From the NCBI GenBank assembly GCA_038904015.1, contig JBCKKZ010000002.1:8369-72368 (forward strand): a stretch of DNA of 64,000 nt, read 5' to 3'. A program made the translations under genes and the position numbers. The notes beneath the pieces are model-generated. The model had not been told where the DNA came from. It made no database searches and saw only the letters and a program-made list of their open reading frames with translations. The stretch is from Burkholderiales bacterium (GTDB taxonomy: Bacteria; Pseudomonadota; Gammaproteobacteria; Burkholderiales; SG8-39). Within the stretch, counting starts at the first letter, position 1, and each line of letters begins with the position of its first letter. Shown piece by piece: positions 2-34,417 of the stretch.

Positions 2-607
2 ATCTTCCGTCGCGGCGGCGGCGAGCAGATGTGCCAGGAGATTGGCGTCCCATTTCTGGGTGCCTTACCTCTCGATGCCGATGTCGTCACCTGCGGTGAT
101 GAGGGTCGTCCGATCGTGGCAGACCAGCCAACGTCGGTCAGCGCCAAGGTGTATGCCGCCATCGCCACGGCGCTCGTGGAGCAGCTCCACGCGGCGGTCA
201 CAGTGCTGAAGCCCTTTGTGTGGAAGTGGGACAGTAACGAGGGGGTGCCAGGCTGGATGGAAGGCGCGGCGCGGTCTGCTGGATCGCAGAAGACCCCGAT
301 CGGTTTCCTGCGTCGCGATCCGCGTACCTTATCCATCCTCTGGGAGGACGGTCATCGCGACGACTTTGACGTCCGTGACCTGCGCTTGGCCTGTCATTGC
401 GCCCTCTGCGTCGAGGAGATGAGCGGACGCAAGCTGCTCGATCCAAAGACCATACGCTCTGATGTGAGCCCGCGACAGATCGTGAGCATAGGCAACTACG
501 CGATCCAGTTCGATTGGAGCGATGGCCATAACAGCGGGATATATTCGTTTAACGACCTGCGTGCCTTAGGCGCGCGCGCTGCGGCGAAGAGCGTTGAAAA
601 TGTCTGA
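2..607 (+). CDS. Mrp/ApbC(NBP35) Fe-S carrier ATPase C-terminus fused to a DUF971 (GBBH-N-like) domain; 5' end outside window
   Basis: IFRRGGGEQMCQEIGVPFLGALPLDADVVTCGDEGRPIV is the Mrp C-terminus; then WEDGH...LRLACHCALC...IGNYAIQFDWSDGHNSGIYSF is DUF971. Confidence 0.85.
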   Translation: MFRRGGGEQMCQEIGVPFLGALPLDADVVTCGDEGRPIVADQPTSVSAKVYAAIATALVEQLHAAVTVLKPFVWKWDSNEGVPGWMEGAARSAGSQKTPIGFLRRDPRTLSILWEDGHRDDFDVRDLRLACHCALCVEEMSGRKLLDPKTIRSDVSPRQIVSIGNYAIQFDWSDGHNSGIYSFNDLRALGARAAAKSVENV

Positions 608-1226
608 TTTCATGCTTGCGGATCTGCCGGTCAGCATTCGCGCGGAGACTTCGCTCAACGACCCCGACACTTGCAAGTTCATCGTGAGCCGTACCTTGCA
701 TCCTGGCGGCCCCTTCTTTTTCGGCAACAAGGAACGGGCAGCCGGTTCGCCGCTCGCCGAGCGACTGTTCGCACTCCTTGGCGTGGCCAACGTGCTCATT
801 GCCGAGAGCGTGGTGACCATCTGCAAGGAGCCTATCGCCTCGTGGTCAGGACTGAAAGCAGCCATCGGGACGGCCATCCGGACGCAGCTGCTGACTGGCG
901 CGCCGGCGATCTTGGAGATGCATGCCTACACCAGCACGCAAGGAAGATCCGATGCAGAGCTTAATACGGCTGTTCAGGAACTCCTGGACAAGCAGGTCAA
1001 TCGTTCAATCGCTAACCACGGCGGGAAGATTTCGATTGTGGAGGTCCGGCAAGGGAAGCTTTTCATCACCATGAGCGGCGGCTGCCAGGGATGCGCGTCC
1101 TCTCAGGTGACGCTGAGGCAGGGATTCGAAGTCATGCTGAAAAGGGTCGCCCCGGAAATCGAGGAAATTGTGGATACGACGAACCACGCAGCGGGGAAGC
1201 AGCCGTACTACCCGCGCCATGAGTAG
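600..1226 (+). CDS. NifU/Nfu-type Fe-S carrier (Nfu N-terminal + NifU C-terminal domain)
   Basis: [18 protein letters not shown] (Nfu-N); [11 protein letters not shown]...[18 protein letters not shown] (CxxC). Confidence 0.85.
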
Positions 1227-3006
1227 CCCTATGACAAATCGACTGTCCCAGGAAACCTCCCCAACCGTCGCGACGCTAGCCGATCTCGCAAAGTTGGCAA
1301 ACTACTCGCTCATGGATACTCTCAACTGCGATCCTGACGCGAAAGCAAACGGAGCCGACCACACGCCGCGACAAGTCTTCACGGGCCACTATGTCCCCGT
1401 CAATCCCACGCCTATCAAAGACCCCGAGTACGTCGCGCACAGCAAAAACTTTTTTCGCGAACTTGGCTTTGCCGACAACATGGCACAGTTGCCCGAGTTC
1501 GTCCGCATGTTCTCCGGCGACATCTCGCACGCTCCGGAGCCGATGCGCAAGGTCGGTTGGGCGTGTGGCTACGCACTTTCCATCTTCGGCACCGAATACT
1601 ACCAGCAGTGCCCGTTCCAAACCGGCAACGGATACGGCGACGGTCGTGCAGTTTCCGTGCTTGAAGCCGTTATCAACGGTCGACGCTGGGAAATGCAGCT
1701 GAAAGGTGGCGGCCGGACGCCATACTGCCGCGGCGCGGACGGTCGCGCCGTCCTGCGCTCGAGTGTCCGCGAGTTCCTGGCACAGGAGCACATGCACGCG
1801 CTCTTCGTTCCAACGTCACGGTCTCTGAGTTTGTACGTTTCAAAAACGGAGAAGGTCAAGCGGCCGTGGTACTCGGAGGGCTCGCGCTCGGAGGATCCCG
1901 ACATGCTTATATCGGAGGCAGTCGCCATCTCGACGCGCGTCGCACCGTCGTTCATTCGGATCGGCCAACTCGAGCTCTTCGGTCGCCGTGCCCGCAAGCA
2001 GGAACACCCGAAAGCAATGGAGGAACTCGAGAAGATTGTGTTGCACTCGATCGATCGTGAGTACGCTGACGTCATCGACAAGAAACTAACCACCGCCGAA
2101 AAAGTGGTGTTGCTCGCGCGCGAGTTCCGCAGCCGCCTTACGTCGCTGGTGGCGAACTGGATCCGCGTCGGCTACTGCCAGGGCAACTTCAACAGCGACA
2201 ACTGCGCGGCCGGTGGCTTCACACTCGACTACGGTCCATTCGGATTCTGCGATGTGTTCAACCCGCACTACCAGCCATGGACGGGTGGCGGACATCACTT
2301 CTCGTTCCTGAACCAACCAGTGGCAGCGGAACGCAACTTCCACATGTTTTGGACGGCATTGCGGCCGTTGCTGACGTCGCATCCGGACTATCTGCGACAG
2401 CTCGACGAGATTCGAAGTGGCTTTTCGAAAGTGATGCAAGCGCAAATGGAGAAGATGTGGGCTGCCAAACTTGGACTTGGCACTTTTCACGCGGCGTTGT
2501 TCAGTGAGCTCGAAACGCTCATGGTGCAAACTCCTGTCGATTACACCATCTTCTTCCGCGAGCTCTCGATGCTACCTGACGACATTGGCCCACTCAAAAA
2601 AAGCTTCTACAAAGACTCGAAGCACGCCATGGCTTCAATGCACCCGACGGTCGAGACAGACCCCGAAGGGATGGACAAGCGCTGGTCCGAGTGGCTCACA
2701 AAATGGAAATCGCTCATCGGCAGCGCCAGCACGACCGACGCGAATGCTGCTCCGCCCCGCTCCCGTGAGGAGCTCTCTAGGCAGATGAAACTCGTCAACC
2801 CAAAATACAGTTTACGAGAGTGGTTCCTTGTGCCTGCGTATCAGCAAGCGACCGCAGGGAACTACTCTCTAGTTCGAGAGCTGCAGGAAGTCATGACGCA
2901 GCCATACGCCGAGCAGTCGAAGGACGTGGAGGCGAAATACTATAGGCTGAAGCCATCTGAGTTCTGTGAGGTCGGTGGATTGTCGTATGTGAGCTGCTCG
3001 TCGTGA
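1219..3006 (+). CDS. selO: SelO/YdiU-family protein adenylyltransferase
   Basis: [53 protein letters not shown]-terminal SCSS; start could be 1231. Confidence 0.9.
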
Positions 3007-4727
3007 GTTTTCAAAAACTGATCGGAGAGGTAGATGCCTCTGCCGAAGAGGTGGTCGTCGCCTACCACGAGCGGACAAAACACCACTTCCACCGCTACGC
3101 CGCCTCGCTTGGCTACATGGACTGGGCGACGCAGCCCGATCCGTTTCGGCGCTACGCGGGAGCGGATCTGGTTCGCCTCCCTCTGCCTAAAGCGGGTCGT
3201 CCGCTGCCCTATTGGCAGCTCTATGCGAGCGCGATCGTGCCGCCGATGCCACTGTCGTTGGCGTCGGTCTCGCTCTTTTTCCGGTATGCACTGTCGCTGA
3301 CGGCGTGGAAGCAATCTGGTGATACCACGTGGCCGTTGCGCGCCAATCCGTCGAGCGGGAATCTTCATCCGACCGAGGGCTATGCCGTACTGCCTGCGGT
3401 CGACCAGATCGGCGCTACGGCCGCCGTGTACCACTATGCGCCGAGGGAGCACGCTCTTGAACGGCGAGCGGTGCTCAATGCTGCGCGGTGGGCCGAGCTG
3501 ACTGGGTCTTTCGCTGAGGGGTCTTTCCCTGAGGGCTCCTTCTTTGTGGGTCTGTCGTCGGTTCATTGGCGAGAAGCCTGGAAGTACGGTGAGCGCGCGT
3601 TCCGTTACTGCCAGCACGACGTTGGACACGCGCTTGCCAGCCTGCGTATCGCGGCAGCGGCGCTCGGCTGGAGATTGGTGCTCCTCGACAGCGTTAGCGA
3701 TGGCACCCTCTCCAGTCTCCTTGGGCTTGACCGCGATGAGGATTTCGCGGCGGCGGAGCGCGAGGAAGCTGAGCTGCTCGTGTTGATTTCACCGGATTTA
3801 CCAGCACCGCTTCTGACGGAATCTAAGCCGCTGACGGCGCATGGCGGTGGCGTTCTTTGGCAGGGCAGGGCCAACACGCTGAGCCCCGAACACAGCGTCG
3901 AGTGGCCCGTGATCGACGCCGTTGCGCAGGCGACGCGACGCTGCGAAAGCTCGCCTATCACTGCAATCCTCGGTAAGGAGGACTTCTCCGGCTTTCCCTC
4001 GGAGGATGAGCTTTTCGGGACACCCATCCGTCAGGGCCTGCTCACCGCGGAGATGGCCATTCTTGGCCGCCGCAGCGCAGTAGCGCTGGATGGTTCGACG
4101 GCGATCTCGCGAGCAGCATTCTTGCGCATGCTCGCCCGACTGATTCCAACACAAGAGCGGCAAGCTATGCCCTGGGACGCGATCCCCTGGCGACCGCGCA
4201 TCCACATCGGGCTTTTCGTTCACCGTGTCGACGGCTTGGCACCTGGCATCTACGCGCTTGCCCGAGATCCGGACAAGGTCGATATCCTCAAGAGAGTGAT
4301 GCATTCAGAATTTTGTTGGCAGCGCGTGTCCGACTGCCCGCCAGGGCTCCCCTTGTACCTCCTCCAGGAGGGGGACTGTCGAGCGCTGGCGACCACCGTC
4401 TCCTGTGGCCAGGACATCGCCGGCGATGGCGCCTTCAGCCTGGCCATGATCGCCGACTACATGGACAGCCTGGCCACATATGGCAGCGGGTTCTACCGGA
4501 ACCTGTTCTGGGAGGCCGGCATGGTGGGCCAGCTGCTTTATCTTGAAGCCGAAGAGGAGGGCATCCGCGCCACCGGGATCGGCTGCTACTTCGACGATCC
4601 AGTCCATGCGGCCTTCGGGATCGAAGCACGCGAGTGGCAAAGTTTCTACCACTTCACTGTGGGCGGCCCGGTTGAAGACGGTCGGCTTACGACCTTGCCT
4701 GCGTACAATTTCGAGGAAGAACAATGA
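3003..4727 (+). CDS. SagB/ThcOx-family two-domain nitroreductase-like dehydrogenase
   Basis: [53 protein letters not shown]; GTGA overlap with selO stop. Confidence 0.85.
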
Positions 4728-4967
4728 GCATCCCGACCACTGTCCCTGCAATTCGGACAGAACCCCGGCAGACCAGAAAGGAGCGGCCACCGGAGGAAGA
4801 AAGTTGAGATGTCTTATATCGGCGGCTGACACTTTCATCCGCACCAAACCTGAATTCGCCGACGCCGCCCGATCCGTTTCGGTGGTACGCAGGAGTGGAT
4901 CTCTCATGACACCAGGTCGTACCGAACACGCAATGTGGCTGGGTAGGTATATGAATGAAGGGCTGGA

Positions 4968-5288
4968 ATGAGTGAGTGGGTGACGGTAGCGCGGGTCGAC
5001 GAACTCGCGCCGGGCGAGTGGCGGGTCGCGGATGTGGACGGCGCGCAGGTCGCGGTATTCAACCTCGACGGCCAACATTACGCCATCGAGGACGTCTGCA
5101 CCCATGATGCTGGACAGCTCACCGGCGGCAGCGTCGAAGGCGACCAGATCGTTTGCCCGCGCCACGGCGCACGCTTCTGCATCAAGACCGGCGCCGCGCT
5201 GACCGCACCCGCTTATGAAGCGACCGCCAAATTCCCCGTGCGCATTGAAAACGGCGTGATCCAAGTACGCGACGACCGCTGGGATTGA
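4968..5288 (+). CDS. Rieske [2Fe-2S] ferredoxin
   Basis: CTH...CPRHGARF Rieske motif, 106 aa. Confidence 0.9.
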   Translation: MSEWVTVARVDELAPGEWRVADVDGAQVAVFNLDGQHYAIEDVCTHDAGQLTGGSVEGDQIVCPRHGARFCIKTGAALTAPAYEATAKFPVRIENGVIQVRDDRWD

Positions 5289-5324
5289 TTCACGTATTGA
5301 ATCCGCCGAAGCAAAGGAACTCTC

Positions 5325-5735
5325 ATGGCAGACTTGGACAAAAACACGCCTTCCCCGACTGAAATCAAGCTGCATCAAAAATCGCGCGTGCTGGTAATTA
5401 CTTTCGCCGACGGCAAGCGCTTCAAGTTGCCCTATGAGTTCCTGCGCGTTTATTCACCCTCAGCGGCAGTGACCGGTCACGGGCCGGGACAGGAGGTGCT
5501 GCAAATCGGCAAGCAGAATATCGAGATCACGCAACTCGAGCCGGTTGGCACGTATGCGGTGCAACCGGTGTTTTCCGACGGCCACAATACCGGTATCTAT
5601 TCCTGGGATTATTTCTACACCCTGGGCATGAACCAGGACGAAATGTGGCAACGCTACTTGCGGCGAATGGAAGAGGCGGGCGCAAGCCGGGAACCCGTGC
5701 TGGGTGCCGTCCCGCAACGCCCCAAATCAAAGTAG
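5325..5735 (+). CDS. DUF971 (GBBH-N-like) protein, copy 1
   Basis: LPYEFLRVYSPSAAVTGHGPGQEVLQ...FSDGHNTGIYSW; RBS aaagga. Confidence 0.9.
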   Translation: MADLDKNTPSPTEIKLHQKSRVLVITFADGKRFKLPYEFLRVYSPSAAVTGHGPGQEVLQIGKQNIEITQLEPVGTYAVQPVFSDGHNTGIYSWDYFYTLGMNQDEMWQRYLRRMEEAGASREPVLGAVPQRPKSK

Positions 5736-5741
5736 CCGCGC

Positions 5742-7205
5742 ATGGATAACCGCGATGATTCCTGCCTGCTAAACAGCGCCGGCGAAGAATATTGGGCAGA
5801 CCCCGCTACGCCGCTCAAGGTCGTACTGATCAATCCCTACGAGCTGGGCCGGCAGCCGTTCGGCCTGGCCGAGCCGTCCGCATGGTTGAAGCAGGCCGGA
5901 TTCAGCGTGCAGTGCATCGACCTCTCTTTGCAAAAACTCGATCCGGCATTGCTTGCCGGCGCGAAGCTGGTGGCGCTGTATGTCGGCATGCACACCGCCA
6001 CCCGCATCGCGGTCGAAGCCATTCCGCGCATCCGTGAAATGGCGCCGCACGCGCATCTGTGCGTGTACGGCCTGTATGCGCCGATGAACCAAAAGCTGCT
6101 GCGCGGCCTCGGCGTGAAAACCATTCTGGGCGGCGAGTTTGAACCGGGACTGCTGAGCCTGGCGCAGCGGCTGCGCGCTGGGGAAACGTGCGATGTGCAA
6201 ATCGAGCCCGTGGTGAATTTAGCCAAAATAGACTTCATCACGCCTGATCGCTCCGGCTTGCCGCACCTGCAACGCTACGCTCATTTGATATTGCCGGACG
6301 GCGCTAAAAAAATACTTGGCTTCATTGACGCAAGCCGAGGCTGCAAGCACCTGTGCCGCCACTGCCCGGTGGTGCCGGTCTATGAGGGCAAGTTTCGCGT
6401 GGTGCCGGTCGATGTGGTGCTGACTGACATCGTGCAGCAGGTACAAGCGGGTGCTGAGCATATTTCCTTCGGCGACCCGGATTTTTTCAACGGCCCGACC
6501 CATGCCATGAAAGTGCTTGCGGCGATGCACGCCAAATTTCCCGACCTGAGCTTTGATGCCACCATCAAGATTCAGCACCTCATCAACCACGCCGAACTGC
6601 TGCCCCGGCTGAAGGCGGCGGGTTGTGTATTCATCCAATCGGCGGTTGAGTCGGTGGATGATAAGGTGCTGGAGTATTTCGCCAAAAACCACACACGCAC
6701 CGATTTTGAACGCGCTTTACAACTGTGCCGTGAAGCTGGCATATCCCTGGCCCCAACGTTTGTGGCATTCACGCCCTGGACCACATTGGCGGGCTACCTC
6801 GACCTGCTGCGCACGCTGGTGCGTTTGCGTCTGGTGGAGGCGGTGCCACCGATTCAGCTTTGCATACGCCTACTGGTGCCGGAAGGCTCCTATTTGCTTC
6901 AATTGCCCGGTTTCCGGGAATTGATTGAGGCGTTCGATGCGAAATTGCTCGGCTATCCGTGGCGGCACGCCGATCCTCGCGTGGACGCTTTGCAGCAGGC
7001 GGTGCAAGCCTGTGCCGCGCACGGCGATCAAGAGGGATTGGCGCGCAGCGACATATTCGAGCAAATTTGGCGGCTCGCGCACGCCGCGCTCGGCATCGAA
7101 GTGTTGCCACTCACCCGGGCGGATTTTGGACAACCCATCGCACGCCTGTCCGAGCCCTGGTACTGCTGCTCCGAGCCCACCGAGCAACAACTGCAGAGCT
7201 TTTGA
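5742..7205 (+). CDS. CUAEP/CCAEP-tail radical SAM protein with B12-binding-like N-terminal domain
   Basis: SRGCKHLCRHC (CxxxCxxC), INPYELGRQPFGLA N-terminus, C-terminal WYCCSEP. Confidence 0.85.
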   Translation: MDNRDDSCLLNSAGEEYWADPATPLKVVLINPYELGRQPFGLAEPSAWLKQAGFSVQCIDLSLQKLDPALLAGAKLVALYVGMHTATRIAVEAIPRIREMAPHAHLCVYGLYAPMNQKLLRGLGVKTILGGEFEPGLLSLAQRLRAGETCDVQIEPVVNLAKIDFITPDRSGLPHLQRYAHLILPDGAKKILGFIDASRGCKHLCRHCPVVPVYEGKFRVVPVDVVLTDIVQQVQAGAEHISFGDPDFFNGPTHAMKVLAAMHAKFPDLSFDATIKIQHLINHAELLPRLKAAGCVFIQSAVESVDDKVLEYFAKNHTRTDFERALQLCREAGISLAPTFVAFTPWTTLAGYLDLLRTLVRLRLVEAVPPIQLCIRLLVPEGSYLLQLPGFRELIEAFDAKLLGYPWRHADPRVDALQQAVQACAAHGDQEGLARSDIFEQIWRLAHAALGIEVLPLTRADFGQPIARLSEPWYCCSEPTEQQLQSF

Positions 7206-7215
7206 GCGGCCGGCC

Positions 7216-7510
7216 ATGAAGCGCGTTCTGCTGCTGTTGCCGACCACCAGTTATCGTAACGACGATTTCCTCGCCGCCGCAAAAAAAAATTGAATGTGGA
7301 TAATATCAGCGTCGCGAATTATTTCCATCAACTGGCGCCGCTATGGGGCATGAGTCCGATTCAGTCGGTGCCGTTCGATCAGCCTGAAGTCGCGCTGCAA
7401 CAGGTGCTCGCCGCGCTGGGACGCAAGCCCGACGTGGTGCTCGCGGTGGACGACAGCGGCCTGGAACTGGCGGCGCTGTTGCGCGAACGCTTGCACCTGC
7501 CGGGCTCACG
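7216..7510 (+). pseudogene. ATP-grasp protein, frameshifted and truncated
   Basis: MKRVLLLLPTTSYRNDDFLAAAKK then a frame change at the A9 run 7281-7289; the other frame continues HQLAPLWG...KPDVVLAVDDSGLELAALL, collinear with the intact paralog at 31041-32336; similarity ends near 7510. Confidence 0.8.
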
Positions 7511-7649
7511 CCGTCACGCCTGCCGCAAGCAAGGCAGGACGAGATCACGCAAACAGCGCACCGCGCCTGTGAACTGGCAGGGCTCACCAGCGGCCCGGTG
7601 CATGCCGGATATTCCCGTCAATCAGGCGAAATCCCCGACGTAAACCCGG

Positions 7650-7880
7650 CTACTCCGCCGGAGCGCGCAGGTCGGGATAATTCTCTTTCACTTCGTGACG
7701 GTTGCCTTCCGCTTCGTACCAGTAGAACTTATCGGGCTCTTCGGTCTTTGCGGTGGTTTTGTGAGTGCTGTCACAAAACGGCTGGTTCTTCGACAACCCA
7801 CAGCCGCATATATACTTGGTTTCCGTGCCCACTGTCACCGGATACGGGCCTGTCCGGGTTCTTTTGACGATCCTTGCCAT
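7650..7880 (-). CDS. CDGSH iron-sulfur domain protein
   Basis: ICGCGLSKNQPFCDSTH matches the CDGSH motif. Confidence 0.85.
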   Translation of the reverse strand: MARIVKRTRTGPYPVTVGTETKYICGCGLSKNQPFCDSTHKTTAKTEEPDKFYWYEAEGNRHEVKENYPDLRAPAE

Positions 7881-8029
7881 GAGCTATCCTTGAAAGTTGT
7901 GTATTAGGTGAATTGAGAAGAGCGCCGATGAGCGCGAATTGCAGCGCGACCACAAAATTGAAACGACTTTGTTCGCTGGGCTCATCATTCAAGTATAGAC
8001 AGAATTCGGCCACTGGTACGAGCGCTCGT

Positions 8030-8773
8030 TTACCAATAAGTCTCAACGGAAATTTGCCCCGGGTCCTTGCGCTTATTGAGCTTAAGGCCGCGACCCTCCA
8101 ACACGGAGCGCGTATCTTTCACCATGTCGGGATTGCCGACAATCATCACGTGCGAATGTTCGGACGAGATTGCGATGCCGGCGCGCGCTTCTAGCCGTCC
8201 GTCCTGGATCGCCGCGGGAACGCGGCCTTTGATGGCGAATGCCGTGTCCTCGCGGCTGATGAAAGGAATAAATTGAAATTGATCGGGATGGCGCTGCTTC
8301 AAAAGCTCTATGGTCTCTTGATAGGTCAGTTCATGGCCGTGGCGCACGGCGTGCACAAGAAAAATTTTCTTGAAACGCTGCCACGGTTCCTCGGTCTTGC
8401 AGATGGAAAGAAACGGCCCCAGCGCGGTCCCCGTTGAAAGTAACCATAGGTGCTCGTTTTGCGGCACGTCGGCGAGCGTGAAAAAGCCGGCTCCCTTGGG
8501 CGCGAGCAGCACCTTGTCACCTGGATTGAGATCATGCAGGCGCGGAGAAAGCGGGCCTTCCGGCACGATGATGGAATAGAATTCGTAGGGTCGCTCGCCC
8601 GGCGCATTCACGAAGGAATAAGACCGCCCCACTATGTCGCCATTGATTTGGAGCGCAAGCCGCCCGAATTGCCCGGCGCGGAACGGTTCGAGATTCGCAT
8701 CGATTTGCAGCGAATAAAGTTCTTTGGTCCAAAGCTTTTTGTTGACGATTTTGCCTTCTATCCATTTACTCAT
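8030..8773 (-). CDS. fpr: Ferredoxin/flavodoxin-NADP+ reductase
   Basis: MSKWIEGKIV, FRAGQF, RSYSFVNAP, LSTGTALGPFLS, C-terminal ETYW; the true start is 8773, not the 9139 ORF start. Confidence 0.9.
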   Translation of the reverse strand: MSKWIEGKIVNKKLWTKELYSLQIDANLEPFRAGQFGRLALQINGDIVGRSYSFVNAPGERPYEFYSIIVPEGPLSPRLHDLNPGDKVLLAPKGAGFFTLADVPQNEHLWLLSTGTALGPFLSICKTEEPWQRFKKIFLVHAVRHGHELTYQETIELLKQRHPDQFQFIPFISREDTAFAIKGRVPAAIQDGRLEARAGIAISSEHSHVMIVGNPDMVKDTRSVLEGRGLKLNKRKDPGQISVETYW

Positions 8774-10091: not shown

Positions 10092-12017
<1,926 letters not shown>

Positions 12018-12044
12018 ATTCGGTTAGAAGCCAGCAAAGGCGTT

Positions 12045-12374
12045 TCAAGCAGAAGTGGCGCGGAGGGCGTTCCGGGTCTTCAGACTGTCGACGGCGTGCA
12101 CCAGGGGCGCGTCGCCCTGCATCAGGTGGGCGATTGCGCCGTACACCAGCCGCTGGCTATCGAGCATGCTCCTGCCGGCGAACGCGGGCGACGTCACTTC
12201 GATGCTGAAGTGTCCGCCGCCGCCGTTGACCGCGGCCCGTGAATTGGGGATCTGCTGCTCGATGGCCTCGCGCAGCGCGTCGGCCGACAGGCCGAGCTTG
12301 GGCGCGAGCATCTCGGCATCGAGGGTGATCTCGCCGTCTGCGATGGTGATCGCTGATGCGGGAACAGGACTCAT
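12045..12374 (-). CDS. BolA/IbaG-family protein with a DUF6522-like N-terminus
   Basis: GGGGHFSIEVTSPAFAGRSMLDSQRLVY...HAVDSLKT (BolA); N-terminus [23 protein letters not shown]. Confidence 0.75.
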   Translation of the reverse strand: MSPVPASAITIADGEITLDAEMLAPKLGLSADALREAIEQQIPNSRAAVNGGGGHFSIEVTSPAFAGRSMLDSQRLVYGAIAHLMQGDAPLVHAVDSLKTRNALRATSA

Positions 12375-12997
12375 CGCGGTGCGGCTCCGGCGACAGGGCC
12401 CTTCACCGTCATGGGCTTGCCCGGGACGAAGTTGATGCAGACCCCGTCAAGCTCTTCCAGAAGCAGCGGCTCGCTCGCGAACCCGCACGCATAGGGCGCC
12501 TGTCCCTCCCGGCTGCAGCCGTCGCCTTCCAGATGCTTACACGACGCGCAGGTGCCGAAGGGAGGTTTGCCTCTCTCCCACGCCACCTGGCCGAGCATGC
12601 GCTGCAAGGCGTTGGCGAAGTGTCCGCGGACGCCCGAGGGTAGGGCGTCCGCGGCACGGACCAGGGCTTCGAAGAGGTCGTTCACAAGAATGGCCGTGGC
12701 TTTGTCGGTCAGAACAAGCCGGACACTGCGCCGGTCGGCCTCTGAGCGCATGCGTGTCAGATAGCCTTGGGTTTCGAGGTTTTTGATCGTCTGCGACGCC
12801 GTGCCCCGGGTCGTGCCATGGAACGCGGCGAAGGCGGACGGGGTGCGCGAGAAGCGGTTGGCCCGCGCGAAGTATCTGAGCACAGCCCACTGGACTGCCG
12901 TCAGCCCCTCCACGAGCCCCTCGCCGGACGCTATGCGCCCCAAGTGCAAGACCAGCTCCGCGATGGCGCGACTGTCCATTTTCGGCTCCTTGATCAT
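12371..12997 (-). CDS. MarR-family regulator with Cys-rich C-terminal tail, copy 1
   Basis: GLTAVQWAVLRY...TRGTASQTIKNLETQGYLTRMRSEADRRSVRLVLT; tail CASCKH...C...C. Confidence 0.9.
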   Translation of the reverse strand: MIKEPKMDSRAIAELVLHLGRIASGEGLVEGLTAVQWAVLRYFARANRFSRTPSAFAAFHGTTRGTASQTIKNLETQGYLTRMRSEADRRSVRLVLTDKATAILVNDLFEALVRAADALPSGVRGHFANALQRMLGQVAWERGKPPFGTCASCKHLEGDGCSREGQAPYACGFASEPLLLEELDGVCINFVPGKPMTVKGPVAGAAPR

Positions 12998-13004
12998 GCG
13001 CAGA

Positions 13005-13056
13005 TAGTAGCGTTTAAAGATTATATTGACAAGAGGATGGTTTCGAATCGATACTA
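13005..13056. promoter_or_regulatory. Promoter with two putative MarR operators (copy 1)
   Basis: TTGACA 13026-13031, GATACT 13050-13055 (18-bp spacer); boxes TAGTAGC-N5-AAGATTA and TGGTTTC-N5-GATACTA; conserved at 24386-24437. Confidence 0.65.
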
Positions 13057-13143
13057 AAACAGCTTAGTTGCAATACTAAAGCGCGCTGACACGGACTACC
13101 TGAACACACCTCGGCTCACAATTCGCCTACTGCCTACATAATC

Positions 13144-23635: not shown

Positions 23636-23755
23636 CTAATCGGTGATCGGTAAGCGCAGTGGGGCGAGCGCTTGAAGATGCGCTCGCAGCCGGCGGGCGA
23701 GCGTTTCAGGCGTGTGGTGCTCAACGGTCGTCGTCGCGGCGGGAACAGGACTCAT
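23636..23755 (-). pseudogene. 39-aa stub after marR copy 2 (MSPVPA start + BolA-like N-terminal fragment)
   Basis: MSPVPAATTTVEHHTPETLARRLRAHLQALAPLRLPITD*; first six codons shared with 12045-12374. Confidence 0.5.
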
Positions 23756-24378
23756 CGCGGTGCGGCTCCGGCGACAGGGCCCTTCACCGTCATCGGCTTG
23801 CCTTGGACGAAGTTGATGCAGACCCCGTCCAGCTCCTCCAGAAGCAGCGGCTCGCTCGAGAACCCGCACGCGTAGGGCGTCTGTCCCTCCCGGCTGGCGC
23901 CGTCGCCTTCCAGATGCTTACACGACGCGCAGGTGCCGAAGGGAGGTTTGCCTCTCTCCCACGCCACCTGGCCGAGCATGCGCTGCAAGGCGTTGGCGAA
24001 GTGGCCTTGGACACTGGGGGGTAGGGAGTCCGCAGCACGGACCAGGGATTCGAAGGGGTCGTTCGCAAGAATGCCCCTGGCTTTATCGGTCAGAACGAGC
24101 CGGACACTGCGCCGGTCGGCCTCTGAGCGCATGCGCGTCAGATAGCCTTGGGTTTCGAGGTTTTTGATCGTCTGCGACGCCGTGCCCCGGGTCGTGCCAT
24201 GGAACGCGGCGAAGGCGGACGGCGTGCGCGAGAAGCGGTTGGCCCGCGCGAAGTATCTGAGCACAGCCCACTGGACTGCCGTCAGCCCCTCCACGAGCCC
24301 CTCGCCGGACGCTATGCGCCCCAAGTGCAAGACCAGCTCCGCGATGGCGCGACTGTCCATTTTCAGCTCTTTGATCAT
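23752..24378 (-). CDS. MarR-family regulator with Cys-rich tail, copy 2
   Basis: Near-identical 208-aa paralog of 12371-12997. Confidence 0.9.
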   Translation of the reverse strand: MIKELKMDSRAIAELVLHLGRIASGEGLVEGLTAVQWAVLRYFARANRFSRTPSAFAAFHGTTRGTASQTIKNLETQGYLTRMRSEADRRSVRLVLTDKARGILANDPFESLVRAADSLPPSVQGHFANALQRMLGQVAWERGKPPFGTCASCKHLEGDGASREGQTPYACGFSSEPLLLEELDGVCINFVQGKPMTVKGPVAGAAPR

Positions 24379-24385
24379 GCACAGA

Positions 24386-24441
24386 TAGTAGCGTTTAGAA
24401 ACTATATTGACAAGACATTAGTTTCGAATAGATACTATAAT
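24386..24441. promoter_or_regulatory. Promoter with two putative MarR operators (copy 2)
   Basis: TAGTAGC-N5-GAAACTA 24386-24404; TTGACA 24407-24412; TAGTTTC-N5-GATACTA 24419-24437 overlapping GATACT/TATAAT. Confidence 0.7.
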
Positions 24442-25508: not shown

Positions 25509-26204
25509 ATGCATCCACGTCACTGGGAACAACACCGCTCTGAACGCACCGGCTGGCTTCGCGCCGCGGTTTTGGGCGCGAACGACGGCATCGTTTCCAC
25601 CGCGAGCCTGGTGCTGGGTGTTGCGGCTGCGCAGGCGACTCACAGCACCGTATTGGTCGCGGGGGTTGCCGGCCTGGTCGCGGGCGCCATGTCGATGGCT
25701 GCAGGCGAGTATGTGTCCGTCCACTCACAGGCAGACACCGAACAGGCCGACATCGAGCGTGAACGCAACGAGATCAAGAAGGACTATCCAGGCGAGAGCA
25801 AAGAACTGGCGGCGATCTACGTCGGTCGAGGTCTTGACCCTGCGCTTGCGAAGCAGGTCGCCGATCAACTCATGGCGCATGACGCGGTCGGCGCACATGC
25901 CCGCGACGAACTCGGGATTTCTGAAACGCTTGGTGCGCGTCCGCTTCAGGCGGCCTTTGCTTCCGCCGCCAGCTTCGCTGTGGGCGCAGCCATGCCTCTC
26001 TTTGTCACGGCATTAGCCCCGGAGGCGAGCCTGATCCCCATCGTCTCAGCTACTTCGCTGGTGTTCCTCGCGCTCCTGGGTGGGGTGGCGGCGCGCGCCG
26101 GCGGCGCGCGTGTGACGGTGGGTGCAATGCGCGTCACGTTCTGGGGTGCGCTGGCCATGGGGTTGACCGCTGGCGTCGGAACTCTGTTTGGAACAGTGGT
26201 GTGA
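25509..26204 (+). CDS. VIT1/CCC1-family Fe2+/Mn2+ transporter
   Basis: WLRAAVLGANDGIVS, AGAMSMAAGEYVSV, HARDELG. Confidence 0.9.
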   Translation: MHPRHWEQHRSERTGWLRAAVLGANDGIVSTASLVLGVAAAQATHSTVLVAGVAGLVAGAMSMAAGEYVSVHSQADTEQADIERERNEIKKDYPGESKELAAIYVGRGLDPALAKQVADQLMAHDAVGAHARDELGISETLGARPLQAAFASAASFAVGAAMPLFVTALAPEASLIPIVSATSLVFLALLGGVAARAGGARVTVGAMRVTFWGALAMGLTAGVGTLFGTVV

Positions 26205-26923
26205 GCGAATACAACTCCGCCCGTAAAGTGTCGAGCGCAGCGGAAATTCTTGGACTAAGCAAACCGCCGATCGCCATCGGCTTTTTCGAGTCGCCGCCCG
26301 CTGGCGTACCTCGATGGGAAGGCGGGTCGGTTGCGGCCGGTTGCGTCTTCTGGGACAAAGCGATGAACGGGCAGACCTTTTATACGATTCCATCCGATCA
26401 TTACAACTGCGCGGTTGGGAGTTACACCCACAACATCGCGCTGCCGGCGGAGCGCGCGCACGAACTGAATGACACGATTGCGTTCATGGCTGAAAACAAC
26501 TACGTCGCCACCGCTGAAGTGCCGGGCATCCCCACACTGGCCAAATCCCCTGGTGCTGTGGCCTACGGCCCCGTGGACCGGGCCGGCTTCAAACCTGATG
26601 TGGTGCTGATTGCGGCGAAACCGGCGCAGGCCATGCTGATTTACGAAGCCGCCATCAAGGCAGGGGCAGGTAGCGCTCTCACTAATGCTCTTGGTCGCCC
26701 GGCCTGCGCTGTCCTGCCACTGACAACGACCAACGGCCAAGCGTCAATCTCGCTCGGCTGTAAAGGCAACCGGACATTTACCGGCCTGCCGGACGAAGAA
26801 ATGTATGTGGCCATTCCCGGTGACCAATGGGAAGCTGTCATCGAGAAACTTACCGAAACGCACCGAGCCAACTTGGCGATGGAAAAGTATTACTCGAATC
26901 GAAAGACCCAACTTAACCCTTAA
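26201..26923 (+). CDS. DUF169-family protein
   Basis: AAGCVFW, HYNCAVG, GRPACAV, SLGCKGNR; Cys pattern typical of DUF169. Confidence 0.7.
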   Translation: MSEYNSARKVSSAAEILGLSKPPIAIGFFESPPAGVPRWEGGSVAAGCVFWDKAMNGQTFYTIPSDHYNCAVGSYTHNIALPAERAHELNDTIAFMAENNYVATAEVPGIPTLAKSPGAVAYGPVDRAGFKPDVVLIAAKPAQAMLIYEAAIKAGAGSALTNALGRPACAVLPLTTTNGQASISLGCKGNRTFTGLPDEEMYVAIPGDQWEAVIEKLTETHRANLAMEKYYSNRKTQLNP

Positions 26924-26938
26924 CCTGGGAGAAGGACT

Positions 26939-28900
26939 ATGAGTCTGAATGTCGCGCAGAAGCTGATCCAGTCGCATCTGGTGCACGGCGACATGAAGCC
27001 CGGCGAGGAGATCGGGCTCCGCATCGACCAGACGCTCACCCAGGACGCCACCGGCACGCTGGTGATGCTGGAGCTGGAGGCGATGGGCCTGGACCGGGTG
27101 AGGACTGAGGTTAGCGTCCAGTACGTCGACCACAACATCATCCAGGAGGACTACAAGAACCCCGACGACCACCTCTTCCTGCGCAGCGCCTGCCAGCGGT
27201 TCGGCGTGTGGTACTCGCGGCCTGGGAACGGGGTGAGCCATCCGTGCCACCAGGAGAACTTCGGCAAGCCGGGCAAGACGCTCCTCGGCGCCGACAGCCA
27301 CACGCCGGCGGGCGGCGCGATCGGCATGCTGGCCATCGGCGCCGGCGGGCTGGAAGTGGCGCTGGCCATGGCGGGCGAGCCGTTCTTCACGCGCATGCCG
27401 AAGATATGGGGCGTGAAGCTCACCGGCCGGCTGCCGGACTGGGTGAGCGCCAAGGACGTGATCCTGGAAATGCTGCGCCGCCATGGCGTGGAGGGCGGAC
27501 TTGGCCGGATCGTCGAGTACTACGGACCGGGGCTAGCCACGCTGAGCGCGATGGATCGGCACGTGATCGCCAACATGGGCGCCGAGCTGGGCGCGACCAC
27601 CACCGTCTTCCCTTCCGACCAGGAGGTGCGCCGCTTCCTGCGCGCGTGGCAGCGAGAAGAGGACTGGGTGGAGCTGGACGCGGATCCCGGCGCGACCTAC
27701 GACATGCACGACGAGATCGATCTCGCGAGCCTCGAGCCGCTGATCGCCATGCCGTCCAGCCCGGGGAACGTGCGCCCGGTGCGCGAAGTCGCAGGCGAGC
27801 GGATCTACCAAGCGTACATCGGCTCGTCGGCCAATCCCGGCTACCGCGACTTCGCCGTTTCCGCGATGATGGTGCAGGGCCGGCGAGTGAACGACCGCGT
27901 GTCGTTCGACGTCAACCCCACGTCCCGGGCGCAGCTCGAAACGCTGGTGCGCGACGGGCACATCGCCAGCCTGCTGCACGCCGGCGCGCGGCTGCACCAG
28001 GCCGGCTGCAATGGCTGCATCGGCATGGGCCAGGCGCCCGCCACGCATGAACTCTCTCTGCGCACGGTGCCGCGCAACTTCCCCGGCCGCTCCGGCACGC
28101 GCGAGGACAAGGTGTGTCTGGTCAGCCCGGAGACCGCCACGGCGTCGGCGCTCACCGGCGTGATCACCGACCCGCGCACGCTCGGCATCCCCTACCCGCG
28201 CATCGCGGATCCAGACGACCCGATCATCAACCGCGAAATGTTCGTGTCGCCGTTGCCGCTTGAGGCGGCGCTGCAGGTGGACCTCGTGAAGGGCCCGAAC
28301 ATCGCCTCGCTGCCGGCATTCGAGCCGCTGCCGGATGAGATCGAAGCGCCCGTTCTGCTCAAGGTGGCGGACGACGTGTCCACCGACGAGATCATGCCGG
28401 CCGGCGCGCGGGTGCTGCCGTTCCGGAGCAACATTCCCAGGATCGCCGAGTTCTCCTTCGACATGCTCGATCCCACCTACGCCGCGCGGGCCCGGCAGGT
28501 GAAGGGCCACGTCGTGGTGGGCGGGAACAACTACGGCCAAGGCTCGAGCCGCGAGCACGCCGCGCTGGGCCCGCAGTTCCTCGGCTTGCGCGCGGTCCTG
28601 GCCAAGGGCTTCGCGCGGATCAGCTCGCAGAACCTGAGCAACTTCGGCGTGCTGCCGCTGACCTTTGTCGACCCCGCCGACTACGACGGCATTCAGGCTG
28701 GCGACGTGCTGCGCCTGGCCGGTGTGCGGCGCGCGCTCGCAGAAGGGGGCGAGCTGGCGGTCGAGAACGTCACACGCCAGCGCAAGTTCCAGGTGCGTCA
28801 CTTCATGTCGCCGCGGCAAGTACAGCACTTGCTCAGCGGGGGATTGATCAACTGGATGAAAGAGCGCCTCTCCGGCTCACCCGAGTCTCGCGGCGCATGA
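26939..28900 (+). CDS. Aconitate hydratase (short Aquifex/archaeal-type aconitase family)
   Basis: DQTLTQDATG, VDHN, GADSHT, GCNGCIGMGQAP, RNFPGRSG, NYGQGSSREHAA. Confidence 0.9.
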   Translation: MSLNVAQKLIQSHLVHGDMKPGEEIGLRIDQTLTQDATGTLVMLELEAMGLDRVRTEVSVQYVDHNIIQEDYKNPDDHLFLRSACQRFGVWYSRPGNGVSHPCHQENFGKPGKTLLGADSHTPAGGAIGMLAIGAGGLEVALAMAGEPFFTRMPKIWGVKLTGRLPDWVSAKDVILEMLRRHGVEGGLGRIVEYYGPGLATLSAMDRHVIANMGAELGATTTVFPSDQEVRRFLRAWQREEDWVELDADPGATYDMHDEIDLASLEPLIAMPSSPGNVRPVREVAGERIYQAYIGSSANPGYRDFAVSAMMVQGRRVNDRVSFDVNPTSRAQLETLVRDGHIASLLHAGARLHQAGCNGCIGMGQAPATHELSLRTVPRNFPGRSGTREDKVCLVSPETATASALTGVITDPRTLGIPYPRIADPDDPIINREMFVSPLPLEAALQVDLVKGPNIASLPAFEPLPDEIEAPVLLKVADDVSTDEIMPAGARVLPFRSNIPRIAEFSFDMLDPTYAARARQVKGHVVVGGNNYGQGSSREHAALGPQFLGLRAVLAKGFARISSQNLSNFGVLPLTFVDPADYDGIQAGDVLRLAGVRRALAEGGELAVENVTRQRKFQVRHFMSPRQVQHLLSGGLINWMKERLSGSPESRGA

Positions 28901-31040: not shown

Positions 31041-32336
31041 TCATGCGCTTTCTCGCCCTGCATTTCGATCACGATAGCGCCTACGGCCGGAAGTAAGCGC
31101 GAAGCGCAAGGGCACTTCGGGCCTGATTTTGATTTCGAGCCGTTGCAGTGCGTTACGCAGAGATGCCTCGACGCCAGCGGCGGCTCGCCCCCGCGCAAAA
31201 ATGAAGCCCAGATAAGCGCTGCTCTCGGGCGGCGGCGCCACGATCTGCCCCCGCTCGGCGGTGATGCGGATGCCGGTGACCCCTTTTACTGCGAGCGCCT
31301 TGCCTAGGCCAGTAACCTCATCGAGGATGCCGCGCGCCGGAATCGGGACCATCATCACGCCGCACGCCGCGCGATGGCGTGCCACCGGCAGCGCGCGGCC
31401 GAGCGCATGGCGCAGGATCAATTCCTCCAGCGTCATGCCGAGCGCGTGGGTGAGCACGCTGCCGCACAGGCCCCCGATCGAACGCGGCGCGATTTCCAGC
31501 AGCCAGATGCCGCGCGCATTGATGCGAAACTCGGCATGTACCGGCCCGCTCGCAAGACCGGCATGGCGGCAGGCCTGCGCGACTTCGCGCGCGGCGGCTC
31601 GCTGCACGCGTCGCGGCAGCCGCGACGGCGTGACGTAGATCGTTTCCTCGAAATACGGGCCATCGAGCGGGTCGGGCTTGTCGAACAGCGCGAGCAACCG
31701 CAGGCGCCCGTTCGCGAGTAACCCTTCAAGCGCGTACTCGCGGCCGGGAATGAATTCCTCGATCACCAGGCCGAGCCGCGCGGCGTCGCGATCGCCTTGT
31801 TTCTGGATGCGCCGCACCCGCGCGACTGCGCGGATCAGCCCGGGGCGGTCGTCGGCGCGAATCACGCCGCGGCTCGCCGACAGGCGGCGAGCTTTGACCA
31901 CGGCGGGAAAGCGCACTGCGCGCAACGCTGCAGGATCGGCGTCCGAGCGCAAATGCCGGAACCACGGCTGTTTCATGCGATGGCGCTTCTGCAGCGTTCG
32001 GAACGCAAGCTTATCGCGCAGCAGGCGCACGCTGCCAACCGGATTGCCCGGCTGTCCGAGCCTGCGGCTGAGCAGCGCGGCGAGCTCGACCCCGTGGTCG
32101 TCCACCGCAAGCACCGCGTCGGGCTTGCGTCCGAGATGACGCAGCGCCAGCGCGAGCGCGCGCCGCGGCCGGTCGAACGGCAGCGCCATCAGCGGGTGCA
32201 GGCCCCACTGCGGCGCGAGGCGATGGCAATAGTCGGCGGCCGGGACGATTTCAACGCCGAGCCTTTGCGCCGCCGCGCGGAAGGCGTCGTTGCGGTACGA
32301 GGCGGCAGGCAGCAGCAGCAGTACCTGCTGTTTCAC
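31041..32336 (-). CDS. ATP-grasp domain protein (intact partner of the CCAEP radical SAM)
   Basis: LSASRGVIRAD, IEEFIPGREYALEG, FDKPDPLDGPYFEETIYVTPS, LEIAPRSIGGLC. Confidence 0.88.
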   Translation of the reverse strand: MKQQVLLLLPAASYRNDAFRAAAQRLGVEIVPAADYCHRLAPQWGLHPLMALPFDRPRRALALALRHLGRKPDAVLAVDDHGVELAALLSRRLGQPGNPVGSVRLLRDKLAFRTLQKRHRMKQPWFRHLRSDADPAALRAVRFPAVVKARRLSASRGVIRADDRPGLIRAVARVRRIQKQGDRDAARLGLVIEEFIPGREYALEGLLANGRLRLLALFDKPDPLDGPYFEETIYVTPSRLPRRVQRAAAREVAQACRHAGLASGPVHAEFRINARGIWLLEIAPRSIGGLCGSVLTHALGMTLEELILRHALGRALPVARHRAACGVMMVPIPARGILDEVTGLGKALAVKGVTGIRITAERGQIVAPPPESSAYLGFIFARGRAAAGVEASLRNALQRLEIKIRPEVPLRFALTSGRRRYRDRNAGRESA

Positions 32337-32548
32337 AGGACCGCGAGTTGCTCGTGGGTCGGCTCGGCGCAGCAGTACCAGGGCTCAGACAGGCGCGGAA
32401 TCGCCCGGCTCGCGTTGTTGACGGCCAGCGGCGGCAGGCCGTTGCGCTCGGGTACGATGAAATCCACCTTGCCGCGATGCACGACCGGCGGCGCTTCGGC
32501 ATCGCCCGCGGCGCCATTCAAGTTGACCTGGCAGGCCGTTGGTCTCAT
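32333..32548 (-). pseudogene. In-frame internally deleted CCAEP-tail radical SAM remnant (71 aa)
   Basis: PPVVHRGKVDFIVPERNGLPPL and RLSEPWYCCAEPTHEQL align to two distant parts of 5742-7205; no CxxxCxxC. Confidence 0.8.
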
Positions 32549-32952
32549 TTTGTCTTGGGGCGCGCTTCGAACCCCGGCTGCGGCTCTCGGCTGGCGCCGG
32601 CTTCCTTGAGCCGCTTGAGATATGCGCTCCACATCTCGTCCTGGTGCAGGCCGAAATCGTAGAGCAGGTCCCACGAATACATGCCGGTTTCGTGACCGTC
32701 GGAGAAGTATGGCTGGATGGCGTAGGTGCCGACCGGCTCGATGCTGTTGATATTGACGTTCTGCTTGCCGACCTGCAGCACTTCCTGCCCTGGCCCGTGC
32801 CCGCGCACTTCCGCGGAGGGCGAATAAACGCGCAGCAGCTCGCAGGGCAGCTGGAACGTCTTGCCATCGGCAAACGAGATCTCGAGCAGGCGCGATTTCT
32901 GGTGCAGCTTGATCTCGGTCGGCTGCGGCACGTCTTTGTTCGGTCCCGCCAT
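32545..32952 (-). CDS. DUF971 protein, copy 2
   Basis: LRVYSPSAEVRGHGPGQEVLQ...FSDGHETGMYSW. Confidence 0.9.
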   Translation of the reverse strand: MAGPNKDVPQPTEIKLHQKSRLLEISFADGKTFQLPCELLRVYSPSAEVRGHGPGQEVLQVGKQNVNINSIEPVGTYAIQPYFSDGHETGMYSWDLLYDFGLHQDEMWSAYLKRLKEAGASREPQPGFEARPKTK

Positions 32953-33723: not shown

Positions 33724-33734
33724 AACTGCTATCC

Positions 33735-34398: not shown

Positions 34399-34417
34399 TT
34401 CAATCGGTCTTGGCCGC

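Follow-up and report, generated by a model that had tools for sequence, protein, structure and literature searches.

Which of the genes that open this stretch of DNA belong together, and what could they make? The stretch, referred to below as the window, comprises 64,000 nucleotides of a Burkholderiales metagenome-assembled genome (G000:C2:8369-72368). It begins with seven genes on the plus strand coding for an Mrp-type ATPase, an Nfu-type carrier, a SelO-like protein, a SagB-type dehydrogenase, a Rieske ferredoxin, a DUF971 protein and a radical S-adenosylmethionine (SAM) enzyme. A sequence-only reading had joined these genes and an ATP-grasp gene into a single functional operon, devoted perhaps to alkylating or sequestering a metal(loid). 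The comparison with relatives described here gives a different unit. The conserved core is the radical SAM enzyme, with its Cys-Cys or Cys-selenocysteine (CC/CU) tail, and an ATP-grasp protein of the L-amino-acid-ligase type, which together form a widespread cassette. Small iron-sulfur maintenance proteins are commonly found beside this core: in Betaproteobacteria this is DUF971, and in several phyla YggX. As a conserved unit, the seven-gene operon is refuted; this result and the complementary loss of genes in two cassettes are specific to the window.

The Radical SAM Protein and Its Tail

The radical SAM protein is a full-length member of NF040546, the CUAEP/CCAEP-tail family (model positions 1-467 of 468), with a score well above the family cut-off (Table 1). 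Both the family membership and the vicinal-cysteine tail proposed from the sequence are therefore correct. The protein ends in ...SEPWYCCSEPTEQQLQSF directly before its stop codon, with the tail WYCCSEP containing C475-C476, and its cluster motif is C201-x3-C205-x2-C208 (CX3CX2C). The family had been taken as uncharacterised, and in Haft's report it is indeed named but uncharacterised (bioRxiv 10.1101/2022.07.06.499078); a literature search for it returned one passing mention and no functional study.

Relatives were collected in two sets. A collection of genomes at species level supplied 80 loci (Beta- and Gammaproteobacteria, Acidobacteriota, Chloroflexota, Actinomycetota, and others), and genomes of the order to which the window belongs supplied another 34. 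Among these 114 loci, one (L141) carries a true ArsL and was set aside for the counts of neighbours, leaving 113 family loci from several phyla. In 30 diverse members the only invariant cysteines are C201, C205, C208, and C475. The position that follows C475 is occupied by Cys or, in many members, by TGA. The tail is CC in 82 of the 114 loci and C-TGA in 29, none of them in a record labelled Proteobacteria, and in the latter [A/S]EP continues in frame past the TGA. A hairpin begins about 15 nt past this codon, and the mean folding energy of the 60 nt starting at the codon is -19.4 in the 29 TGA loci vs. -13.0 in 81 Cys loci. These features indicate that many members contain selenocysteine (Sec), as the sequence-only reading had stated for some. 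The predicted hairpin is like a bacterial selenocysteine insertion sequence (SECIS) element. Compensatory changes are seen in its stem, for example GGGACC/GGTCCC, GGAGC/GCTCC, and GCGACC/GGTCGC in loci such as L063, L083, and L102. The window protein has the Cys-Cys form, which the family definition allows, rather than the Sec form. Its Ser-containing tail is rare, since among the 114 loci it is otherwise found only in L033 (CCSEP) and L104 (C-TGA-SEP).

An AlphaFold2 model of the protein has a mean pLDDT of 92.9 and a pTM of 0.90, with pLDDT values of 82-85 in the two final blocks of 10 residues, where the tail lies. The predicted fold corresponds to a Rossmann-like N-terminal domain followed by a radical SAM barrel. 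The nearest solved folds are AprD4, OxsB, TsrM, and MgmA, then MiaB and RimO; no ArsL chain was found among the sequence or solved-fold matches.

The Conserved Neighborhood

Neighbors were counted by tblastn, with the window proteins and representatives of recurrent neighbor clusters as queries, within 6 kb of the radical SAM gene and at a query coverage of at least 50%. The ligase-type ATP-grasp is present in this range in 79 of the 113 loci, followed by DUF971 in 41 (upstream of the radical SAM gene, all in Betaproteobacteria), YggX in 35 (several phyla), ubiE in 18, a TlpA-like thioredoxin-fold gene in 9 (upstream), and DUF169 in 7. Rieske and class I methyltransferase genes are each found in 4 loci. 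SagB is found in 3, on the opposite strand each time, Nfu in 2, full-length Mrp in 1, and SelO in none. The sequence-only reading had itself named a lack of conserved linkage as what would speak against one functional operon; this lack is complete or nearly so for SelO and full-length Mrp, and Nfu, SagB, and Rieske come close to it.

The same reading was right about the ATP-grasp family, which is a real partner of the radical SAM enzyme by both adjacency and co-occurrence. Where at least 1.5 kb of downstream sequence is available (97 loci), the ligase gene is found no more than 3 kb away in 78, including 49/49 from Betaproteobacteria, 23/26 from Acidobacteriota, and 2/3 from other or unlabelled sources. 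Of 301 sampled order genomes, 40 give a radical SAM match at E<=1e-50; one of these is the ArsL, so that 39 carry the family. The ligase occurs in 38 genomes, all of them among the 39 carriers, and in 0 of the 261 genomes that lack a radical SAM match; the single carrier without a ligase match is the unpublished genome G026, on which this detail and the totals that count it depend. The family is thus present in about 13% of the order genomes (39/301), which are ordinary soil and water bacteria, and its pattern is matched by an estimated 5,600 stretches in the species collection.

The recurrent neighbors point to iron-sulfur maintenance and not to metal(loid) handling. They are DUF971, YggX (NF003817, an oxidative damage protection protein), aconitase, and DUF169, with Nfu and Rieske found occasionally, while no ars or mer genes are present among the recurrent neighbor clusters that were annotated. 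DUF971, an 'FeS cluster maintenance' protein, reportedly shows cofitness with Mrp, BolA, and YggX (bioRxiv 10.1101/072470). Aconitase lies within 3 kb in 13 of the 20 Acidobacteriota loci having 3 kb on both sides; in L066 it is annotated and divergently transcribed from the radical SAM gene.

Nine annotated loci that lack an adjacent ligase have no neighbor common to them all. In two actinomycete loci without the ATP-grasp, other genes adjoin the radical SAM gene: a GCS2-type carboxylate-amine ligase in L067 (8135-9664, minus strand) and a non-ribosomal peptide synthetase (NRPS) adenylation-carrier (A-T) module in L110 (11711-14269, plus strand).

Several apparent links were rejected. The clusters 'unk99', 'unk102', and 'unk141' seemed conserved, and come from aconitase, DUF971, and YggX genes translated in a wrong frame or in antisense. 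'unk180', whose N-terminus resembles a signal peptide, travels together with the TlpA-type gene, and both are probably periplasmic bystanders. In most of the 18 ubiE loci, which are from Betaproteobacteria, the radical SAM-ligase pair is found between ubiE and Tim44-like, ubiJ, or ubiB genes. A link to ubiquinone was nonetheless discarded, since the cassette occurs elsewhere without ubi genes and a separate DUF971-ubiE pair exists in 3 of 5 genomes checked, in which one DUF971 paralogue lies beside the radical SAM gene and another beside ubiE.

The SagB-type gene was also followed on its own. It is present in 51 of the 301 order genomes, and in 14 SagB loci compared from other genomes SelO is found in 2 and the other window genes in none; a SagB copy of 85-86% identity (in G238) has no neighbor in common with the window. 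The tandem nitroreductase occurs in 19 of 39 radical-SAM-positive genomes vs. 32 of 262 other order genomes, although related genomes are not independent. This co-occurrence is only a hint, and shared ancestry or lifestyle may explain it.

Two Half-Decayed Cassettes

The model NF040546 matches the genome of the window twice, with the intact gene and with a 25-residue tail match on the minus strand (window 32342-32416). The window contains two divergent cassettes with complementary decay: copy 1 keeps the radical SAM gene and copy 2 keeps the ligase.

The first copy is collinear with the nearest relative, L033, over window positions 4968-7505 (L033 9226-11763, 80.9% DNA identity by blastn). The similarity begins exactly at the Rieske start codon, which makes Rieske the first gene of the shared block. 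The DUF971 gene stops 6 nt upstream of the radical SAM start. Ten nucleotides past the radical SAM stop, at 7216, lies the start codon of an ATP-grasp pseudogene, which carries a frameshift and a stop at 7281-7293 (A9 run at 7281-7289, stop at 7291-7293). By tblastn, residues 3-24, 26-98, and 235-270 are preserved in three different frames, residues 99-234 and 271-431 are missing, and homology ends near 7607. A 414-bp internal deletion is located at 7505/7506, where blastn skips L033 11764-12177; the L033 ATP-grasp is an open frame.

The intact ligase named by the sequence-only reading (31041-32336) does not belong to the gene string. It is found 24 kb away on the minus strand, as part of the second cassette. 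Its start overlaps the stop of a radical SAM remnant, detected by tblastn as two short segments, in which residues ~147-176 and 456-487 are kept in one frame ending in ...SEPWYCCAEPTHEQLAVL before the stop codon. In agreement with this, blastn of copy 2 to L113, L034, and L033 reaches only about 60 nt into the 3' end of the radical SAM gene. The DUF971b of this copy shares 93 of 136 residues with the first DUF971 (68%, BLASTP), and the two ligase copies are 56% identical over 73 comparable residues, so that the cassettes are old paralogues or xenologues. The surviving genes keep every invariant column (33 in A1, the radical SAM; 59 in A2, the ligase). As a result of the complementary decay, one complete enzyme pair survives, its two genes 24 kb apart. 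In window 26201-28900, 2-5 kb from the second cassette, genes for a DUF169 protein and an aconitase-family protein are also present; both families are recurrent neighbors of the radical SAM gene in other phyla.

The source genome is a bin of 123 contigs, 63% complete, with a contamination estimate of 0.09%. Its G+C content has a mean of 0.639 (sd 0.031 over 5-kb windows). The copy 2 region resembles the genome at large, with a G+C content of 0.646-0.655 and a tetranucleotide distance of 0.128-0.137 (background mean 0.171). For the first 35 kb of the contig, copy 1 included, the G+C content is 0.58-0.62 and the tetranucleotide distance 0.185-0.285, with two 5-kb windows near or above the 95th percentile. 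An acquired island fits these values without being proved by them, as a binning or assembly join would explain them too.

The surviving ligase has both an intact ATP-grasp core and the C-terminal domain of L-amino acid ligases, which the decayed copy lacks. It is the only intact copy found in the assembly and the only match in this genome at E<=1e-40.

Proposed Pathway and Its Rivals

The proposed chemistry takes its start from ArsL, the C-As bond-forming enzyme of arsinothricin biosynthesis, which cleaves SAM to methylthioadenosine and a 3-amino-3-carboxypropyl radical, with no 5'-deoxyadenosine (5'-dA) formed. Among radical SAM enzymes with the classic motif, it is described as alone in having been shown to donate the amino-acid part of SAM and not the adenosyl part (bioRxiv 10.1101/2024.02.01.577332). 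The C-terminal Cys motif of ArsL binds arsenite, and its removal abolishes the product while SAM cleavage is kept (bioRxiv 10.1101/2024.02.01.577332; bioRxiv 10.64898/2026.04.29.721666).

With moderate confidence, we consider the region to be a Mrp/DUF971-Nfu-SelO-SagB string joined to one copy of a Rieske-DUF971-radical SAM-(ATP-grasp) cassette, the mechanism of which we infer from homology to ArsL. The [4Fe-4S] cluster of the radical SAM enzyme would cleave SAM at the C-gamma-S bond, and the CC/CU-tail enzyme would form a 3-amino-3-carboxypropyl radical or an organometallic intermediate. The tail, a flexible Cys-Cys or Cys-Sec element, would present a soft atom (S, Se, or a metalloid), and this atom would then receive the 3-amino-3-carboxypropyl group. 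The product would be a 2-amino-4-X-butanoate, a methionine-like amino acid, which the ligase may join to a second amino acid. Rieske, DUF971, YggX, and Nfu would take no part in these steps, and would serve the oxygen-sensitive radical SAM cluster by its reduction, insertion, or repair; most simply, they are helpers of this cluster in aerobes. The Rieske ferredoxin may donate electrons to the radical SAM enzyme. Three observations fit this scheme. The closest solved relative of the ligase, BL00235, takes methionine, being listed as making Met-Gly and Met-Met (PMC6920838). The true ArsL locus carries its own ligase-type ATP-grasp. Finally, the GCS2 gene and the NRPS module found beside the radical SAM gene in L067 and L110, where the ATP-grasp is absent, agree with a role for carboxylate activation.

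Several points weigh against this interpretation. The mode of SAM cleavage, the acceptor atom, and the substrates of the ligase are all matters that we infer, and the tail has two conserved Cys/Sec residues vs. the three that ArsL is reported to use for holding As. The pair is not universal: the ATP-grasp is not adjacent in 19 of the 97 loci, with frequencies within 3 kb of 0/6 in Chloroflexota, 0/2 in Actinomycetota, and 4/11 in Gamma- and other Proteobacteria. In the window, the two surviving genes lie on opposite strands and need not be co-expressed, and their complementary decay rests on a single contig of an incomplete metagenome-assembled genome. Between the copy 2 ligase and each of its relatives, that of a same-genus genome included, identity is only 57-63%, and the products of the two cassettes may not work together. 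The SagB enrichment, in turn, leaves room for a looser link. An extended version of the proposal holds that the radical SAM enzyme and the ligase make an S- or Se-bearing methionine-like amino acid and its dipeptide, through which aerobes, aided by DUF971 and YggX, would protect or rebuild their iron-sulfur enzymes (aconitase, for example), and that a hybrid pathway is found here, with the radical SAM from an acquired cassette and the ligase from a second one after reciprocal gene loss. In this full form, it is improbable.

The pathway of the sequence-only reading, in which the seven genes and the distant ATP-grasp use the Cys-Cys tail to alkylate or sequester As, Se, Te, or Hg, is very unlikely. 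It draws on the common orientation of the genes and the overlaps among the first four, on the relationship of the radical SAM to ArsL, on a rhodanese gene upstream, on the SagB enrichment, and on the CU dipeptides of the HgcA, MerB-like, and MerT selenoproteins noted in bioRxiv 10.1101/2022.07.06.499078. Against it stand the scarcity of SelO, Mrp, Nfu, and SagB around the radical SAM gene in other genomes, the neighborhoods of SagB that are not themselves conserved, the lack of ars and mer genes among the annotated recurrent clusters, and the frequency of the family in ordinary soil and water bacteria. The true ArsL locus has ArsM-like genes and none was found among the window genes scanned, and the tail offers two thiols, not three. 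Nothing points to a metal(loid) in a setting of iron-sulfur maintenance genes. A second explanation, rather unlikely in our judgment, keeps the core and changes the chemistry: the protein would be a canonical 5'-dA radical enzyme that modifies an amino acid or the ligase dipeptide, with the tail acting as a redox or hydrogen-atom-donor arm and not as a substrate holder. The C-terminal Gly-Cys-Sec-Gly of thioredoxin reductase offers a comparison for such an arm. That Cys changes to Sec at a single fixed position suggests a role in catalysis, redox or nucleophilic, the nearest solved folds (AprD4, OxsB, TsrM, MiaB) include canonical 5'-dA enzymes, TlpA-type genes lie upstream in some loci, and the tail is modelled as docked and not disordered. 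On the other hand, ArsL, the closest characterised relative in sequence, makes methylthioadenosine and no 5'-dA; the TlpA genes are probably periplasmic because they are paired with a signal-peptide protein; and no conserved gene for a candidate peptide substrate was found, the small upstream open reading frame (ORF) clusters being antisense artefacts.

The third explanation concerns the window more than the family. Both cassettes could be decaying relics, whose surviving radical SAM and ligase no longer cooperate or, as a variant, the arrangement could be an artefact of a chimeric metagenome assembly. We regard this as unlikely. A clear pseudogene in each cassette, the distance and opposite strands of the survivors, and the divergence of the ligases of the two source lineages are in its favor, as are the incompleteness of the bin and the low G+C content of the first 35 kb. 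However, the surviving genes are full length with all invariant residues kept, and random loss does not predict an exactly complementary decay. The deletions are internal to genes, whereas assemblers switch at repeat boundaries, and the contamination estimate is very low. The ArsL-like scheme with two complementary cassettes is the preferred explanation.

The Gene String of the Window and Its Surroundings

Genes were called from the ORF listing with Pfam and NCBIfam scans (Table 1), and for family matches of such strength chance is not in question. All the genes named by the sequence-only reading are present on the plus strand, with the exception of the intact ATP-grasp, which lies outside the string. 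Their description as largely overlapping holds for the first four only (overlaps of 14, 11, and 4 nt); a gap of 240 nt separates SagB from Rieske. A promoter and terminator scan of 4500-8300 gave no plus-strand signal in this gap, and terminator counts at shuffle level. The ORF 4480-4971 was treated as spurious, as it has no family match and overlaps SagB.

Table 1. Features of the window that are discussed in the text (positions in the window; domain and family scores in bits).
Feature	Positions	Strand	Evidence
Mrp/ApbC-type P-loop NTPase (iron-sulfur carrier) fused to a Cys-bearing DUF971, 3' part	2-607	+	Pfam ParA/NUBPL 324.5 bits, GBBH-like_N 83 bits (full gene)
Nfu-type iron-sulfur carrier (Nfu_N and NifU C-terminal domain)	594-1226	+	Pfam NifU 68.7 bits, Nfu_N 59.5 bits
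Divergent SelO-like pseudokinase/AMPylase	1216-3006	+	Pfam SelO 212.5 bits
Tandem nitroreductase-fold protein with SagB-type dehydrogenase domain	3003-4727	+	TIGR03605 96.8 bits (cut-off 78.4), Pfam Nitroreductase
Rieske [2Fe-2S] ferredoxin	4968-5288	+	Pfam Rieske 70.4 bits
Stand-alone DUF971 protein, Cys-free	5325-5735	+	Pfam GBBH-like_N 105.1 bits
CUAEP/CCAEP-tail radical SAM, intact, Cys form	5742-7205	+	NF040546 606.2 bits (cut-off 500)
ATP-grasp (L-amino-acid-ligase type) pseudogene	7216-7612	+	tblastn, collinear blastn to L033
Intact ATP-grasp ligase, 431 aa	31041-32336	-	Pfam ATP-grasp_4 94.8 bits, LAL_C2 55.8 bits
Remnant of second CCAEP-tail radical SAM, 62 residues	32333-32515	-	NF040546 positions 443-467 only, 28.4 bits
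DUF971b, second stand-alone DUF971	32545-32952	-	Pfam GBBH-like_N 109.1 bits

The whole Mrp-DUF971 gene starts upstream of the window (G000:C2:7722-8975, 417 aa) and has an HCF101-like architecture. The SelO-like ORF opens with a TTG codon at 1168 and has its first ATG at 1216. Its product is under all three NCBIfam cut-offs for SelO/YdiU (YdiU 277 bits vs. 431), and ends in ...VSCSS, with Cys as the third residue from the end, which presumably matches the Sec position of eukaryotic SelO. A role of the SagB-type gene in the maturation of thiazole/oxazole-modified microcins (TOMM) finds no support in its surroundings: the scanned window and upstream genes contain no YcaO, no precursor gene, and no other family of ribosomally made, post-translationally modified peptides (RiPPs).

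The Mrp/DUF971-Nfu-SelO-SagB genes are a lineage-specific iron-sulfur/redox string, part of a longer co-directional run behind a MarR gene. The 8.4 kb upstream of the window contain, on the same strand, MarR, an unassigned ORF, an NDH-2-like flavoprotein, GTP cyclohydrolase I, a lipoyl-synthase-like radical SAM protein, a rhodanese, and the start of Mrp. A repeat of 700-800 bp with this 208-aa MarR gene occurs in three copies with identities of 98.3% and 94.4%, at G000:C2:3069-3768 (plus strand) and window 12358-13057 and 23639-24437 (both minus strand). Genes for iron-sulfur or flavin enzymes follow each copy in a co-directional run: NDH2-FolE-LipA-like-rhodanese-Mrp-Nfu-SelO-SagB and onward in the first, ThiC-NuoB-like-FNR in the second, and GltB-GltD-like-ETF-QO in the third. 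The arrangement suggests that MarR controls a set of iron-sulfur enzymes. The ThiC gene (10092-12370), directly behind its MarR copy, has no thiamine pyrophosphate (TPP) riboswitch by Rfam, which gave no match at the gathering threshold in window 1-34000. Direct repeats with 94-98% identity are also found between window 33733-34397 and 43876-45301 and between 55145-55880 and 56863-57520; one of them overlaps a SocA/Panacea-domain and Fic-domain gene region (34080-35422).

Significance

NF040546 is the much larger sister family of ArsL, with Sec in several phyla, a ligase partner, and a position beside iron-sulfur maintenance genes. To show its product would add a second example of ArsL chemistry, and this product could be an unrecognised metabolite linked to iron-sulfur or oxidative stress. 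For expression, the seven-gene string is the wrong unit; the right one comprises DUF971, the radical SAM gene, and the ligase, from a relative in which all are intact. The two half-decayed copies are, in addition, a tidy natural example of complementary gene loss.

Comparison with Known Systems

The resemblance to ArsL noted from the sequence is real, in that ArsL (NF040542) is the closest characterised relative by hhalign, and yet the window radical SAM is not an ArsL: its score, its tail, and the ArsM context all set it apart. Homology extends over 395 columns to residue ~419 (probability 100%, E 1.8e-65, 28% identity), and the profile comparison with the true ArsL ends before the tail. The CX3CX2C cluster motif and a Cys-rich C-terminal tail are found in both. 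In contrast, the ArsL model gives the window protein 250.9 bits against a cut-off of 450 and the true ArsL of L141 682.9 bits. The tail W[YF]C[CU][AS]EPT has two conserved thiol or selenol groups, and the third conserved tail Cys is not present in the window gene; ArsL has RCCLKC, with three Cys reported to bind As. Two ligands instead of three, together with the high frequency of Sec, speak against arsenite binding being simply copied here. There is no ArsM-type match among the window genes scanned, while L141 has two ArsM-like genes; the partners of the NF040546 enzymes are DUF971, YggX, and a dedicated ligase, and the family is far more widespread (39 genomes vs. 1 among the 301 searched). 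The L141 locus itself (G263:C62, 800-6430, minus strand) is a genuine ArsL locus with a KRCCLKC tail, where the two ArsM-like genes code for methyltransferases. It also contains a major facilitator superfamily exporter and the ligase-type ATP-grasp, and adjoins an IS4 transposase; this gene content suggests that ligation into dipeptides may also occur with arsinothricin-like amino acids.

The fold of Dph2 differs from that of radical SAM enzymes. This enzyme of diphthamide synthesis, the other one known to make a 3-amino-3-carboxypropyl radical, lacks the CX3CX2C motif and is linked to the window protein only by the proposed chemistry, via ArsL (bioRxiv 10.1101/2024.02.01.577332). The ligase resembles the L-amino acid ligases BL00235 and BacD in its ATP-grasp_4 and LAL_C2 domains, and its best sequence match in the PDB is the BL00235 ligase (3VOT, E 5.4e-33). 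Unlike the known L-amino acid ligases, it reaches the cut-off of no NCBIfam model and co-occurs strictly with a radical SAM enzyme in the sampled order. As for HCF101 and the Mrp-DUF971 proteins, the window has both forms, one Mrp-DUF971 fusion and two stand-alone DUF971 genes: the DUF971 linked to the cassette is Cys-free, whereas the domain fused to Mrp has a CxCxxC motif.

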